Assembly: GCA_002238805.1 (NCBI GenBank)
Contig: MPNB01000003.1
Span: 6,407 to 70,406 of the forward strand
DNA from: Rhodothermaceae bacterium bin80
GTDB lineage: Bacteria; Bacteroidota; Rhodothermia; Rhodothermales; Bin80
Length of the DNA stretch: 64,000 bases
Direction of reading: 5' to 3'
Below the pieces are notes generated by a model. It did no database searches. It was not told where the DNA came from and saw nothing but the letters and a program-made list of their open reading frames with translations. Position 1 is the first letter of the stretch. Each line of letters begins with the position of its first letter. Position numbers and translations under genes: made by a program. This document shows, piece by piece, positions 7,403-17,502 of the stretch.

Positions 7403-7532
7403 CTATTTCCACCCACGAGTAAGGGGGTGTCGCATTCCGGGCGCCTTGCCGTTTGATGGCGACGGACCTCCTTGGGCGGCGAGTTTGCGGCCTTAGAATA
7501 TCGTCCGTGGGCGGAGCGGCCAAAGACGGCCG

Positions 7533-7904
7533 CTAGCTCGAACCCGACCCGAGTTCGATGTGTACGTTATACCAGGTGAAACGCTGGCCACTGGCGTCAA
7601 GCGTGACCTCCTTAGTCTCGTCCGGTTCGAGGGAGGTGCGGGGCGTCGGCCCTAGCTCCTTACCGCTCGACAGGTGGATTTCGACCCGCACATTGGTGAC
7701 CGTGCTCGCAGTGGTGTTGTGGATCGTGCCGATGAATTTTTGCATGCCCGCGTTGTAGCTCAGCGTGAGGTCCACGCCGCTGCGCGTCTCCATCGCCGTC
7801 TCGTCCATATTATAGCGTGTGCCGCTCTCACCGGGTTCCGAGGCGCTGTCGCAGGCGCCTGCCAGCAGGACGAGCAGCAGCGATGCAAGGTGTAATCGTT
7901 TAAT
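7533..7904 (-). CDS. hypothetical lipoprotein, paralog A (no canonical start codon for its signal peptide)
   Basis: The listed ORF starts at Met 7808, but the frame is open upstream to 7913. There it encodes (I)KRLHLASLLLVLLAGAC, a lipobox signal peptide. The only start-like codon is ATT at 7904, preceded by AGGA. The mature part is paralogous to 7930..8394. Confidence 0.5.
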   Translation of the reverse strand: MKRLHLASLLLVLLAGACDSASEPGESGTRYNMDETAMETRSGVDLTLSYNAGMQKFIGTIHNTTASTVTNVRVEIHLSSGKELGPTPRTSLEPDETKEVTLDASGQRFTWYNVHIELGSGSS

Positions 7905-8394: not shown

Positions 8395-8772
8395 ATCTCC
8401 TACTGTCTGTTCTTAGTTGGTTGGAGACGCGTTGGATGGGTAACTCAAGAAACGTCCCCTGTATACCCCGGTGGGACCGTAAAGTTTCATCCAGAACCGG
8501 GGTTGGACGCAGGGAGTGCTATCGCCGCCCCCCACTCCTTTGTCCAGTTACGGCCCTGATCGTACCTCCATTTCGGCCAACATGCAAGGGATAAACTGGG
8601 GATTACAAAGCAGGTCTAGGTTTTCAAGCTCTCGCGATTTTGGTGATAACACTTCGGAACGAGACTGTCTCCAGTGGGGCTAACTACATTCAAGAATCAC
8701 GTATTGCGTTACAGGGACGCTACGTAATACTGAAATTCACCTACAAACCGAGGCTGATGTAGTATTGTCGGT

Positions 8773-9321
8773 GGCGCGTGGTTGTTCTATCACGGGACAC
8801 AAGGGAATTCACTGCGATTCGGCAGCATCATTGAGCGGACTCACCCTTACCTGATGCGGGCAAAGCCTGATCCAGTGCATTCGTATCGCTGTATTTGGAG
8901 GGGCACTTCATGAGGATATGTTCGGCTTCGAACACCCCTCCATTCAGGTATCCCTCTACGACGATCTTTTCGGCATCTTCGAAACTCGCCGGTTTTGGGT
9001 CCCGGTAATGCACTTCGCGTACCGCTTCCTCGTTATCCCGCAGGTGGAACCTGAAAAGGTTTTTTTCGGGGTTGTAGTGCGCCGTCTCGGACTGCACCCA
9101 GTTACCAACGACATGAGCGCGTGTCCCGGACGCTTCGGCTTCAGAAAAATGCATATATGCCCCCACCTAGTCTCCGAAACTGAAGAGAAGCAGGGATGCA
9201 AAGCCCACCAGGGCAATCAGACTGATAATGGTGCGAGGTTTGCGCATGATTAAGTCAGTGGTCAACTCTGATCAATCGGTGGATTTTTTTCGCTGAGCAG
9301 GGCTTTCACGGAGGATTCCAG
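8773..9321. repeat. direct repeat copy 1 (degenerate ccmD 3' end plus ccmE)
   Basis: Aligns base for base with 16807..17355 at a constant offset of 8034 and with no indels. I counted about 38 mismatches over the roughly 500 nt I compared by eye, which is about 92% identity. Confidence 0.9.
8828..9265 (-). pseudogene. ccmE: ccmE pseudogene (in-frame TAG at codon 33)
   Basis: It is colinear with the intact ccmE at 16862..17299. Codon 33 is TAG (9167..9169) where the intact copy has CAA (Gln). This cuts off the N-terminal membrane anchor. The ORF track shows only the 112-aa distal piece. Confidence 0.8.
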
Positions 9322-9597
9322 ACGAGTCGGTCCAACAGGGCATCCGCAATCGTAGGATTGGCCATGTTTTTGATATTACTTGGGGACTGGGAAAAAGATG
9401 AGAGAGCGGAGGGAATTGTCAAGGCGATGGGAAATCATAAGACACCGTGGGCCATTTCGACGTTTTCTTCCAGTTCGCAATGCTATCGCTCACAGCCGTC
9501 TTTTGGGTCGCGCTGATCTACTGACGGAGTATCCTATTATATCAGGCTAGCAAATGGTCCTGTCTCGCCCACAGTTATGTATGACCGGTAAGATATT

Positions 9598-13790: not shown

Positions 13791-15773
13791 TCAATTGCCC
13801 GTGGCATAGCTCAGCGGTACGTCCGATCCCCTCGGCGAAACGCGGACGTAACCCTGCATTTCCTGATGCAGTGCCGAACAAAAGTCCGTGCAGTAGAAAG
13901 GATATACTCCCTCTCCTCGCGGTGTCCACTTTAATGTGCGCGTTTCCCCGGGCATGATCAGCAGTTCTGAATTGTTCGCCCCTATAATTGCAAATCCATG
14001 CGGGACATCCCAGTCCTGCTCCAGATTTGTAACATGGAAGAATACTTCATCACCCACCTGCACGCCTTCGATATTGTCCGGTGCAAAATGGGTACGGATG
14101 GATGTCATGTAAACATGCACCGTATTGCCATCGCGTTCAACGCGCGTTTGAGCTTCGCTCTTGGTAGCAAAGGGATGCTCATTCTCCTCAATGGGAAAAA
14201 ACTGGACTTGGTTATCCATGATCAATTCAGCCGGTAATGCCTGCGCATAGTGTGGTTCGCCCATTGTTGGGAAGTCCAGCAACATCCGCATCTTATCCCC
14301 GCTGATGTCTATGAGTTGTGCGGCATGGGCCAGTTCCGGGCCAGTCGGCAGATAGCGATCTTTGGTGATCTTGTTCATTGCGACAAGATACTTGCCCCAG
14401 GGATTCTGGCTATCACCGCCTGGAATCATCAGATGACCAACGCTATAGAACACGGGGATGCGATCCACGACATCCCAAGGCTCTGCTACCCGCCATTTTA
14501 CGATCTCTGATGAAATGAAGGCAGTCGTATAGGCAAATCCCTGTCCGTCAAATTCCGTATGGAGCGGCCCCAGCCCCGGATTCTCAACCTCGCCGGCAAT
14601 GATGGCTTCATACTGAAGTACGGGAATTCCCTCTATTGTGGTCTCGTAAGCTTCGTCGGCGATGGCTTGCATCATCTTGTCAAACGAATGAACCGGGATC
14701 ACGGTGGCCAGCTTGCCTCCGGCAACGATATACTGACCTGTGGGGTCCACATCAACACCGTGGGGCGATTTCGGCGTCGGTAAGTAATAGACCATTTGAT
14801 CGCAGTCGGCAGCCTCAAGAACCGTTACACTCGTCTTCTCCGTGGAGACCGCTGATTGTGTGGCCCGGTCCATATGATTATGGAAATAGCGGGTATCCAT
14901 TTGACGGGCGTTGCCATCAGCGACGCATTGCTCTGCACGTTGCCAGTTGACTGCAGCAATGAAGTCTTTGTCATTCTGCGAGGCATTGACCTCCAACAGC
15001 GTGTGGGCCTCTTCCGAGTTGTATGAAGTGAAGAACATCCAGCCGAAGGACGGTCCCTTTCCAGCGTGTGCCAGATCATAGTTGAATCCCGGCACTAAAA
15101 TCTGGAATGCCACATCCATTTCTCCTGGGGTGTTCGCATGGATGAAGGAAAGTGAGCCTCTGAAATTGCCAGCATAGTCACTTATTGCCATGTCCCGCTG
15201 CGGAATCGGTATACTGAAGCGTGTGGAAGCGACAAGGTATTCGGAATTGGGCGTAATAAAGGGAGAGCCGTGATTGCCTGCAGAATTTGGGATCTCAATG
15301 ATCTCCTCGGTTGCAAAAGTCGTCAAGTCAACCCGCGCGACACGGGGCGTATTATTGGCATTGATAAATATCCAGCGTCCGTCCGGTACGCCATCTGTCA
15401 TAGACAGTTCAGGATGATGAGCGTCGTCCCACGGTACGAAGCCATATGAGGTATTAAGCATGGGGCGCGTTTCTTCCGTGTACCCCCATCCATTCTCTGG
15501 GAACTGTGAAAAAACGGGGACATCTTTCAGATGACGTCCAGAAGGTAAGCCATAAACCGTCAGGTTGCCGCTGAATCCTCCAGAAAAGAACGAGTAGAAT
15601 TCATCATACTCACCCGGAGGTACGTAAACTTGTCTAGCCGCATCATCGCTAAAGCCGTCCCGCAAGCCCGGATTTTGGCAGGCAAAGAAAAACATTCCGG
15701 ATAACAAGAGGAGGAGGCCACAGCCGGCCAAGAATCGATTGGTCAGGATCGATAACATCGTGTTAGGCTTCAT
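13791..15773 (-). CDS. nosZ: nitrous-oxide reductase NosZ, atypical/clade II type with a Sec/lipoprotein-type signal
   Basis: The C-terminal CuA motif is CTDFCSALHQEMQGY. It has a large His-containing seven-bladed-propeller-type N-domain. The N-terminus MKPNTMLSILTNRFLAGCGLLLLLSGMFFFAC has no twin-arginine motif. Confidence 0.95.
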   Translation of the reverse strand: MKPNTMLSILTNRFLAGCGLLLLLSGMFFFACQNPGLRDGFSDDAARQVYVPPGEYDEFYSFFSGGFSGNLTVYGLPSGRHLKDVPVFSQFPENGWGYTEETRPMLNTSYGFVPWDDAHHPELSMTDGVPDGRWIFINANNTPRVARVDLTTFATEEIIEIPNSAGNHGSPFITPNSEYLVASTRFSIPIPQRDMAISDYAGNFRGSLSFIHANTPGEMDVAFQILVPGFNYDLAHAGKGPSFGWMFFTSYNSEEAHTLLEVNASQNDKDFIAAVNWQRAEQCVADGNARQMDTRYFHNHMDRATQSAVSTEKTSVTVLEAADCDQMVYYLPTPKSPHGVDVDPTGQYIVAGGKLATVIPVHSFDKMMQAIADEAYETTIEGIPVLQYEAIIAGEVENPGLGPLHTEFDGQGFAYTTAFISSEIVKWRVAEPWDVVDRIPVFYSVGHLMIPGGDSQNPWGKYLVAMNKITKDRYLPTGPELAHAAQLIDISGDKMRMLLDFPTMGEPHYAQALPAELIMDNQVQFFPIEENEHPFATKSEAQTRVERDGNTVHVYMTSIRTHFAPDNIEGVQVGDEVFFHVTNLEQDWDVPHGFAIIGANNSELLIMPGETRTLKWTPRGEGVYPFYCTDFCSALHQEMQGYVRVSPRGSDVPLSYATGN

Positions 15774-15804: not shown

Positions 15805-16281
15805 TTACTGAATCACATCAGCAGCATCAGTTTGACTGCTGCGCAGAAACTCAAGTACTGACCGCGCATCGGCTTCAGTCAGGTTTTGGTTAGGCATTGG
15901 AGTGAAGTACTCCGCCAACATGTCCTGTCCCGCAGGATGTTTTTTTGCCATTTCGTCTGGATTCAGCATCATGTTCATAATGAACTCAGGGCTCCGTCGG
16001 TCCAGCACTTGTCCCAATGGCGGCCCTACATAACGTACGTCCAGCTTATGGCAGGCGGCGCACTTGGTCGCAAATATTGCCTGGCCTTGAGAGACTAGTG
16101 AGGTGTCAATGGTTGCGTCCAGTTCAAGCTCGTCAATAGGTCCGATTCCGTGTTCAAGTTCTGTCCGGGATAGCATGTCTGTTTGTTGTTGCGGCTGTGT
16201 ATCGCCCGGTGCACGATCTCCTCCGTCGGCACACGCTGTTAAGCCGATTAGTATTAACACGCAACCATTGAAGATTCTCAT
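15805..16281 (-). CDS. c-type cytochrome lipoprotein associated with nosZ
   Basis: Has the haem motif CAACH and a distal Met region (MMLNPDEM). The lipobox signal MRIFNGCVLILIGLTAC starts at the ATG at 16281. The listed ORF start at 16311 lies inside the upstream repeat unit. Confidence 0.8.
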   Translation of the reverse strand: MRIFNGCVLILIGLTACADGGDRAPGDTQPQQQTDMLSRTELEHGIGPIDELELDATIDTSLVSQGQAIFATKCAACHKLDVRYVGPPLGQVLDRRSPEFIMNMMLNPDEMAKKHPAGQDMLAEYFTPMPNQNLTEADARSVLEFLRSSQTDAADVIQ

Positions 16282-16458
16282 AGTGGTATTAGGCATTTCG
16301 TCCGTCGGCACACGCTGTTAAACCGATTAGTATTAACACGTAACCATTGAAGACGCTCATAGTGGTATTAGGCATTTCCTCCGTCGGCACACGCTGTTAA
16401 ACCGATCAGTATTAACACGCAACCATTGAAGACGCTCATAGTGATGTTAGATATTTCG
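16222..16458. repeat. three abutting tandem copies of a 79-bp unit covering the 5' end of the cytochrome c gene
   Basis: Units lie at 16222..16300, 16301..16379 and 16380..16458. They differ at about 5 to 7 positions each, and the first bases of a fourth unit follow at 16459. Each unit contains an ATG plus a lipobox signal peptide. Confidence 0.9.
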
Positions 16459-16505
16459 TCCGTATTTTGTTCCCGTCACGGAATAACGGATTTAGCAGTT
16501 TGATT

Positions 16506-16727
16506 CTACCGCGAGTGTTGTGGGTAGAGGTTTAGATCTCCGCGGAAAAAAAGAATTACAGATCTGAAGTTTTCAAATTTTCTGTACCCTCTGCCGATAG
16601 TTTTGACCCCCTGGATCCTCCCATCAACTCGTTCCGATCTGGCGTTGGATTGTTCACGGCAATGTGCATTACCCACGCCTGTGAGATATCGTTCAAACAT
16701 CTCAGCTACTTTCATGATCTCCATCAC
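16506..16727 (-). mobile_element. C-terminal remnant of a transposase (ISL3-like motif)
   Basis: The 73-aa ORF ends in SNARSERVDGRIQGVKTIGRGYRKFENFRSVILFF. This matches the C-terminal pattern (T/S)N-x3-E-x2-N-x2-I-x3-K/R-x3-G(F/Y)R-x-F-x-NFR-x2-IL that I associate with ISL3-family transposases. No catalytic domain is present. Confidence 0.45.
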
Positions 16728-16806
16728 GGACGCTTCTTTCCAGAAGTTACCTTCTTATTCAATTACTCTGGAGTGAGATTTCCCCCGATAATTGAGACGT
16801 TTGGGG

Positions 16807-17355
16807 GGCGCGTGGTTATTCTATCACGGGACGCAAGGAAGTTCACTGTGGTTCGGCAGCTTCACTGAGCGGAATCGTCCTCACCTGATGTGGGTAAAGC
16901 CTGATCCAGTGCACTCGTAGCGTTGTATTTGGAGGGGCACTTCATGAGAATATGTTCGGCTTCGAACACCCCTCCATTCAGGTATCCTTCTACGACGATC
17001 TTTTCGGCATCTTCGAAGCTCGCCGGTTTTGGGTTCCAGTAATGCACTTCGCGTACTGCTCCCTCGTTATCCCGTAGGTGGAACTTGAAAAGGTTTTTTT
17101 CGGGGTCGTAGTGCGCCGTCTCGGACTGTACCCAGCTGCCAACGACATGCGCGCGTGTACCGGATGCTTCGGCTTCAGAAAAATGCATATACACCCCCAC
17201 TTGGTCCCCAAAACTGAAGAGAAGCAGGGATGCAAAGCCCACCAGGGCAATCAGACTGATAATGGTGCGAGGTTTGCGCATGATTAAGTCAGTAGTCAAC
17301 TCTGATCAACCGGTGGATTTTTTTCACTGAGTAGGGTTTTCACGGAGGATTCCAG
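16807..17355. repeat. direct repeat copy 2 (intact ccmE plus ccmD 3' end)
   Basis: This is the partner of 8773..9321 at offset 8034. Confidence 0.9.
16862..17299 (-). CDS. ccmE: cytochrome c maturation haem chaperone CcmE, CxxxY variant
   Basis: Has an N-terminal anchor IISLIALVGFASLLLF and an OB-fold-like body (VVGSWV...VVEGYLNGGVFEAEHILMKCPSKY). Cys sits where canonical CcmE has the haem-binding His. The TTG start overlaps the ccmD stop; an alternative ATG lies at 17281. Confidence 0.8.
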   Translation of the reverse strand: MTTDLIMRKPRTIISLIALVGFASLLLFSFGDQVGVYMHFSEAEASGTRAHVVGSWVQSETAHYDPEKNLFKFHLRDNEGAVREVHYWNPKPASFEDAEKIVVEGYLNGGVFEAEHILMKCPSKYNATSALDQALPTSGEDDSAQ

Positions 17356-17502
17356 TCGATCAATCTTTCGATCTGTGGCATAGATGAACATAGTGATCCC
17401 AATCCAGATGATAAGTACAACGGCAAGAACAACCATCAGTTTGTCGTTGTCCAACATAACGGTCTCAATGCTACCGGCTGCTTGTATTAACAGGGTGATC
17501 AT
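17296..17502 (-). CDS. ccmD: small membrane protein, CcmD-like
   Basis: The 68-aa protein has a single TM segment (LMVVLAVVLIIWIGITMFIY). It lies between ccmC and ccmE with 4-nt overlaps on both sides. Confidence 0.6.
   Translation of the reverse strand: MITLLIQAAGSIETVMLDNDKLMVVLAVVLIIWIGITMFIYATDRKIDRLESSVKTLLSEKNPPVDQS

Follow-up and report, generated by a model that had tools for sequence, protein, structure and literature searches.

Is a gene start that stands three times in a row a device of the operon behind it, or is it the residue of a copying error that the cell tolerates? The question is raised by a stretch of 64,000 nucleotides (nt) from Rhodothermaceae bacterium bin80 (GenBank assembly GCA_002238805.1, contig MPNB01000003.1, positions 6,407 to 70,406 of the forward strand), which was analyzed as a whole and is referred to here as the window. 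Within it, a nos cluster for nitrous oxide (N2O) reduction opens with a gene for a lipoprotein cytochrome c (nosC), and the start codon and signal peptide of this gene are carried by three tandem units of 79 base pairs (bp). We find it probable that two microhomology-mediated duplications left this array as a fixed, lineage-specific scar, which is tolerated through re-initiation of translation.

Structure and constancy of the triplicated gene start

The array and the gene that it begins comprise the following features, all in window coordinates.

15805 to 16296, minus strand: nos-linked lipoprotein cytochrome c gene, 163 amino acids (aa), with a Pfam Cytochrom_C match (7e-12), the lipobox LTAC and the heme motif CAACH; 158 aa from the alternative start at 16281.
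16380 to 16458, minus strand: repeat unit U1, in which the first ancestral ATG has become ATA and Arg7 has become Ser (R7S), with four transitions within 9 nt of the first 15 nt.
16301 to 16379, minus strand: repeat unit U2, with both ATGs present (16375 and 16360) and the changes R7S and C12Y.
16222 to 16300, minus strand: repeat unit U3, the functional start of the cytochrome c gene (MPNTTMRIFNGCVLILIGLTAC...), which keeps every residue conserved in relatives.
16453 to 16463, minus strand: upstream boundary microhomology, ACGGACGAAAT, which begins ahead of U1 and runs into it; Tandem Repeats Finder (TRF) counts its first 5 nt as an additional 0.1 copy.
16216 to 16226, minus strand: downstream boundary microhomology, ACGGAGGAGAT, at the end of U3 and just beyond it.

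TRF reported 16222 to 16463 as a single array with a period of 79, 3.1 copies, 92% matches, 0% indels and a score of 414. The three 79-bp units occupy 16222 to 16458 on the minus strand, head to tail and abutting exactly, without a spacer. The triplication that the preliminary description reported is therefore real, and the same array is present in four other assemblies. U1 and U2 differ at 7/79 positions, U1 and U3 at 8/79, and U2 and U3 at 5/79 (90 to 94% identity). A search of the entire 4.08-Mb genome with the units returned nothing beyond the units themselves (E-values of 1e-25 to 1e-30), and the 79-bp unit had no match in 40 relatives. Exact-pattern scans of genome and metagenome contig collections with the unit core came back empty; the unit is thus absent from every other lineage in those collections, with the limit that records of this genome or of very near ones may be excluded from them. 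Because the unit matches only its own sisters genome-wide, the array is well beyond chance, and the unit is neither a dispersed repeat nor a mobile element.

The gene start that is repeated can be placed from homologs. Public gene callers start the cytochrome at ATG 16296 (MPNTTMRIF..., 163 aa), and its eight closest homologs (74 to 77% identity, 163 to 164 aa) are collinear from that start. Lipoboxes of the form L-x-[AG]-C and an identical gene order are common to all of the homologs; in the close ones, position 7 is conserved as a basic residue and position 12 as Cys. In these traits, and in its c-type heme domain and its place directly before nosZ, the gene matches the lipoprotein cytochrome that opens the Sec-type nos clusters of Rhodothermales/Bacteroidota relatives. 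U2 and U3 each carry an extra in-frame ATG 15 nt upstream of 16360 and 16281, respectively (GAAATGCCTAATACCACTATGAG), which is at 16375 in U2 and at 16296 in U3. With the gene start at 16296, the unit begins just 4 nt before the ancestral start codon; it consists of the first 25 codons and is about 95% coding, with almost no leader and no room for a promoter. It had been proposed that the repeat might triplicate promoter-proximal sequence, and this composition speaks against that proposal.

The array boundaries point to the way in which it arose. An 11-nt imperfect direct repeat (ACGGAsGArAT) lies exactly at both outer boundaries, where ACGGACGAAAT and ACGGAGGAGAT match at 9/11 positions, and ACGGAGGAAAT, at the junction of U1 and U2, is a hybrid of these sequences. 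A boundary direct repeat together with a hybrid junction is the expected footprint of slipped-strand or unequal exchange at microhomology. RecA-independent rearrangement between short direct repeats is a general class of bacterial mutation. The array resembles slipped-strand tandem duplications of this class in lacking a spacer, in its short boundary repeat and hybrid junction, in being single copy in relatives and in having no mobile-element signature. It differs from them in that there would have been two rounds, in that the copies are 6 to 10% diverged, and in that the duplicated segment, which includes a start codon and signal peptide, creates reading frames. U2 resembles U3 over the first 15 nt but U1 at positions 24, 25 and 57, a pattern of shared differences that fits two duplication rounds, since one unequal crossover in a two-copy array would give it. 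We propose that two successive slipped-strand tandem duplications copied the first 25 cytochrome codons and the 4 nt upstream of them, which would leave the third copy as the working gene start and the two upstream copies as decaying pseudo-starts.

Comparison with related nos clusters agrees with a lineage-specific array. We compared the locus with 77 related nos loci, drawn from 9 order-level genomes, 7 closest-relative metagenome loci (74 to 77% identity) and 61 species-representative genomes. A tandem repeat at the homologous gene start was found in none of the 77, the closest relative being only 77% identical in protein sequence and the immediate ancestor unseen. The three units have also not changed alike. 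U3 keeps the first ATG, R7 and C12, whereas U1 has ATA and R7S and U2 has R7S and C12Y; the differences specific to U3 are a synonymous Gly codon (GGC versus GGT) and the R7/I8 codons, where the basic residue is kept. As changes at conserved positions are confined to U1 and U2, constraint appears to act only on the last copy; the sites are few and this is not a statistical test, but the direction is clear. A slippage relic was among the options first put forward for the repeat, and it becomes the favored one through the microhomology at both boundaries, the absence of the repeat from the 77 loci and the decay confined to the upstream copies.

The window comes from a 192-contig metagenome-type assembly, a setting in which a tandem array could be an artefact, for instance strain variants strung together. 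The exact cytochrome protein is on record on 12 contigs. Four other assemblies (Joint Genome Institute [JGI] 3300027327, JGI 3300002151, the Logan assembly [k=31] of SRR6214543 and the NCBI metagenome-assembled genome [MAG] GCA_026713585.1) have the three units spaced by 79 bp, with 100% identity to the window over 0.9 to 2.3 kb. SRR6214543 is an Aplysina aerophoba sponge metagenome (10.1101/2024.01.09.574914). The samples are possibly not biologically independent, as they may come from one sponge species, and perhaps from one specimen. The longest tract common to the units is 27 nt, and all words of at least 28 bases across 16150 to 16520 are unique; the words that span the array junctions are GACGGAGGAAATGCC and GACGGACGAAATGCC. 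A k=31 graph therefore has one unambiguous path through the array, and its junction words must exist in the reads. An assembly artefact is thus very unlikely, and is the least probable of the accounts that we weighed.

A copy-number-variable contingency repeat, which would switch or grade nos expression within the population, had also been suggested. Phase variation classically acts on tandem repeats at gene starts, as with the pentamers of Neisseria opa genes and the 7-bp repeats upstream of Haemophilus hmw1A and hmw2A. Like those repeats, the array is found right where a gene for an exported protein begins. Unlike them, it does not consist of perfect units of 5 to 7 nt whose number varies and switches a reading frame or promoter strength; its units have a length of 79 nt, have diverged, and do not vary across five assemblies. 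We saw no copy-number variation among these five separately produced assemblies, which all have exactly three units, a comparison made at the consensus level, where minor variants would not show. Slippage should be rare between 79-nt units that are 6 to 10% diverged and share no tract of at least 28 nt. Moreover, each unit has its own start, so that copy number cannot shift the frame of the last copy. We give the contingency locus very little probability.

Long tandem repeats occur elsewhere in the genome, and in nearly all of them the period is divisible by 3. No long repeat with another period reiterates a gene start. A noncoding 70-bp tandem repeat of 2.6 copies that are 92% identical lies just upstream of a gene start on contig C88 (positions 7498 to 7679), and its units contain GGAAGACAAAGT. 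Long in-frame repeats were found on contigs C48, C153, C29 and C106 (period of 126), C189, C41, C149 and C32 (72/216) and C77 (108). Such periods are typical of WD40-, LRR- and Sel1/TPR-like repeats and would fit the eukaryote-like proteins of sponge symbionts, an assignment made from the period alone.

Reading frames in the upstream copies

The two upstream units contain short open reading frames (mini-ORFs), both present in the program-made ORF list.

16368 to 16439, minus strand: mini-ORF 1, 23 aa, MSVFNGCVLILIGLTACADGGNA followed by a stop; its TAA lies in the start region at ATG 16375 (ATGCCTAA).
16289 to 16375, minus strand: mini-ORF 2, 28 aa, MPNTTMSVFNGYVLILIGLTACADGRNA followed by a stop, or 23 aa from ATG 16360; its TAA lies in the start region at the gene ATG, 16296.

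The unit length dictates where these frames end. Since 79 is 3 × 26 + 1, translation enters the following unit one base out of register and reads ...GGA sGA AAT GCC TAA; each upstream copy is therefore out of frame and closes at a TAA within the start region of the next copy. At both junctions this TAA is placed 2 nt after the first ATG of the next unit (ATGCCTAA) and 7 nt before the second ATG. The preliminary description had noted two signal-peptide-like mini-ORFs ahead of the first nos gene, and both frames do exist. Its account of their ends needs amending, because mini-ORF 1 finishes in ...CADGGNA and mini-ORF 2 in ...CADGRNA, where ...ADGGNA had been given for the second as well. It had also put the stop of the second mini-ORF 7 nt before a genuine start at 16281; the distance is correct for the second ATG, but the gene callers and the 163-aa homologs put the start at 16296.

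This geometry suggests how the duplications could be borne. If transcribed, the upstream copies would be read as mini-ORFs of 23 and 28 aa. Ribosomes finishing a mini-ORF would stop at the next start, and the cytochrome would be made by re-initiation together with direct initiation at U3. With an intact last copy, and with every pseudo-start closing at the start codon that follows it, the scar would be tolerated, and the array would have no dedicated sensing or switching role. The arrangement resembles translationally coupled leader cistrons, in which the stop of one frame lies in or next to the next start and allows ribosomes to be handed over; here, however, the geometry arises incidentally from the length of the unit and is conserved in no relative, and coupling is a possibility that the positions of the codons allow.

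The mini-ORFs could instead be secretion- or copper-coupled leader peptides of the SecM/CutF/CruR type, whose co-translational export would tune the genes for a periplasmic copper enzyme downstream. Both retain the hydrophobic core and the lipobox LTAC and lie ahead of such genes, and CutF and CruR show that control of this kind over copper proteins exists (PMC9973294, PMC9426467). CutF (Rhodobacter capsulatus cutFOG; PMC9973294) and CruR (Bordetella bp2923; PMC9426467) combine a signal peptide with a Cys sensing motif and a C-terminal PP or RAPP stalling motif, and CutF has in addition a stem-loop that masks the next start (PMC9973294). The likeness to CutF, CruR, SecM, MifM and VemP lies in an upstream ORF with a putative export signal before genes of an extracytoplasmic copper-dependent system. 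Those sensors, in contrast, are up to about 150 aa long, carry CxxxC/CXXC and PP/RAPP motifs, usually have a stem-loop and form conserved families, and none of this holds here. Neither mini-ORF has a C-terminal stalling motif (PP, RAPP or similar) or a CxxxC/CXXC sensing motif, there being 6 residues after the lipobox Cys and no second Cys among them. The basic residue at position 7 of close homologs is Ser in both, so that this basic residue of the n-region is lost.

We found no stem-loop that would mask the start: the RNA from 16480 to 16200 has a z of +1.59, with 191/200 shuffles folding at least as well, and an Rfam scan gave no match. The ribosomal exit tunnel holds roughly 30 to 40 residues. 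A chain of 23 to 28 aa is shorter than this, so the whole mini-ORF chain is still in the tunnel at termination and ends before the signal leaves the ribosome, which makes export feedback on translation impossible. The mini-ORFs are also absent from all 77 related nos clusters. A leader-peptide sensor, proposed at the outset as a secretion-coupled leader for N2O reductase expression, is already contradicted on its defining features, and we rate it lower still than a contingency locus.

The upstream flank and the imported nos island

The question of whether and how the upstream units are transcribed leads to the DNA in front of them, and the question of how long they have persisted leads to the history of the cluster.

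16500 to 16740, minus strand: 5'-truncated remnant of an ISL3-family transposase gene (Pfam DDE_Tnp_ISL3 positions 185 to 240 of 240).
13791 to 15773, minus strand: nosZ (Pfam), with a Sec/lipoprotein-type N terminus, 32 nt downstream of the cytochrome gene.
16804 to 17359, minus strand: inner ccmD'-ccmE copy, intact, the donor allele, 92.2% identical to a congener, G001.
8770 to 9325, minus strand: outer ccmD'-ccmE copy, a pseudogene with an in-frame TAG, the resident allele, 96.5% identical to G001.

nosZ is followed by a gene for a 208-aa membrane protein and by nosL, nosD, nosF and nosY. On the other side of the array, the 3' end of the ISL3 remnant lies about 40 nt upstream of U1, where relatives have a promoter and 5' untranslated region (5'-UTR). 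About 40 copies related to the remnant occur in the genome, with many in the congeners G001, G003, G006 and G011, and the matches end at 16504 to 16489. The ISL3-family element is thus highly multiplied in the genus, and a 240-bp 3' remnant of it abuts the nos leader here. In four of the closest relatives (L019, L021, L022 and L023; 74 to 77% identity), a perfect TTGACA-N18-TATAAT precedes the cytochrome ATG by about 75 nt, and the 5'-UTR contains a conserved CACTCGTATCAAnTTCAC element; the window has neither the promoter consensus nor the element.

A consensus scan for sigma-70 promoters and for terminators, which does not cover the promoter type of this lineage, found nothing on the gene strand: the interval from ccmE to the cytochrome gene has no sigma-70-like site in that orientation, and neither do the units. 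Transcripts may come from read-through of murB-ccmBCDE or from the insertion sequence (IS) remnant. A TAGAAT hexamer at 16509 to 16504, in the last bases of the remnant, could be a -10 element directed toward nosC. The same findings bear on the idea that the upstream units lie outside the mRNA, with transcription starting in U2 or U3 from a promoter in the signal-peptide or junction sequence, so that the mini-ORFs are never made. The lack of a recognizable promoter upstream of U1 on the gene strand and the replacement of the native upstream region by IS debris agree with it. However, the scan, which does not cover the promoter type of this Rhodothermales-like lineage, found no promoter-like site inside the units either, and transcription that runs on from ccmBCDE or the IS remnant, on the same strand, would account for transcripts just as simply. 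We regard silent upstream units as quite unlikely.

Of the 9 order-level loci, 5 (L003, L004, L005 with three copies, L006 and L010) have the motif TTTAAGACAAAAT upstream of the nos cytochrome gene and on the same strand as it, often with a weak inverted partner 6 nt away, and the motif may be the operator for an unknown nos regulator. In the window we found a weak partial match, GAACAAAAT, at 16470 to 16462, just upstream of U1; at that degeneracy the match is not significant, and we made no use of it.

The cluster as a whole appears to be an import. nosZ and the nos cytochrome were not found in 23 genomes of the same genus and 1 of the same family (G001 to G024), most of which are at least 95% complete; roughly half of the order's other families yielded both. 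The capacity for N2O reduction appears to be a recent acquisition of this species. The search also bears on whether the units are alleles from different lineages that were joined head to tail. We consider this origin less likely, because no nos genes were found in the same-genus genomes searched; none of the collections searched contains a relative above 77% protein identity.

Direct repeats of 556 bp, the two ccmD'-ccmE copies, bracket the nos cluster and are 91.7% identical without gaps. The ccmC and ccmB genes that flank the inner copy are 98 to 99% identical to those of G001, and G001 (locus L093) has the empty site, with the downstream flank, a single ccmE, and then ccmC and ccmB. Because the inner copy falls below the identity of ccmC and ccmB to G001, it is the donor allele, imported with the nos genes, and the outer copy is the displaced resident. 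From these comparisons, we read the nos island as having been imported fairly recently from a lineage that is unsampled and about 8% diverged, and as having entered with its own ccmE via a homologous crossover in ccmD on one side. We considered and rejected an in-situ duplication as the source of the ccmDE repeats, the copies being donor and resident alleles, and for the same reason we rejected dating the array by their 8% divergence. The outer ccmE (8828 to 9250) has its in-frame TAG after ...LLFSFGD, where the intact copy has Gln, and both ccmE copies have CPSKY where canonical CcmE has HxxxY.

The resident ccmDE allele gives another yardstick. The units are 6 to 10% diverged, compared with about 2 to 3.5% for the resident allele against G001, so the array is likely to predate the transfer. 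Judged by this divergence, the array is probably older than the island transfer and was most likely already present in the donor.

A tolerated scar or a retained device

The loss of the native upstream region and the age of the array raise the possibility that it was kept because it is useful. After the ISL3 insertion and the island transfer removed the native promoter and 5'-UTR, the array would add ribosome entry points, and the mini-ORFs would pass ribosomes to nosC, keep a long foreign leader translated against premature termination and decay, and set nosC-nosZ output. The ATGCCTAA stop/start geometry at both junctions agrees with such an adaptively retained expression device, as does the unusually unstructured leader (z = +1.59). 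The TTGACA-N18-TATAAT found about 75 nt upstream in relatives has been replaced by the ISL3 end, with no sigma-70-like site on the gene strand, and the array persists despite the 6 to 10% divergence of its units. On the other side, a unit length of 79 nt is by itself enough to give this geometry, so that selection is not required. The first ATG of U1 is lost, and conserved residues are lost in both upstream copies, as drift predicts. No relative among the 77 loci has converged on the same design. An expression device of this kind, the main rival to the scar, seems to us possible but doubtful. In the more specific form of a selected ribosome relay, the two decayed initiation regions would load ribosomes, hand them over via ATGCCTAA and so restore or set nosC-nosZ translation after loss of the native 5' region. 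The apparent age of the array is the only hint toward a useful relay, which we think rather unlikely.

We therefore prefer the duplication scar, and the setting of the locus adds support to it: the array lies in a heavily rearranged imported island, with the ISL3 remnant ending 40 nt upstream. Several points weigh against this reading. The divergence among the units (6 to 10%) exceeds the roughly 2 to 3.5% between the resident ccmDE allele and G001, and the array has resisted collapse, which could hint at selection for its retention. One sponge species or specimen may be the source of most of the assemblies, which limits the demonstrated fixation to a single population. Finally, the presence of exactly three copies in five assemblies is silent on benefit or neutrality. 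What the sequences show is the structure of the array, its microhomology, its constancy across assemblies, its absence from relatives and the one-sided decay of its copies; slippage as the mechanism, co-transcription, re-initiation and neutrality are inferred.

For annotators, these results mean that the cytochrome start is ambiguous (16296 or 16281) and is preceded by two pseudo-starts. As a small evolutionary curiosity, the locus would be an out-of-frame duplication of a gene start that became fixed and persists because the unit length puts each stop on the next start. Since the array sits in a recently imported nos island, this sponge symbiont may rely on improvised sequence upstream of the cluster to express N2O reduction.

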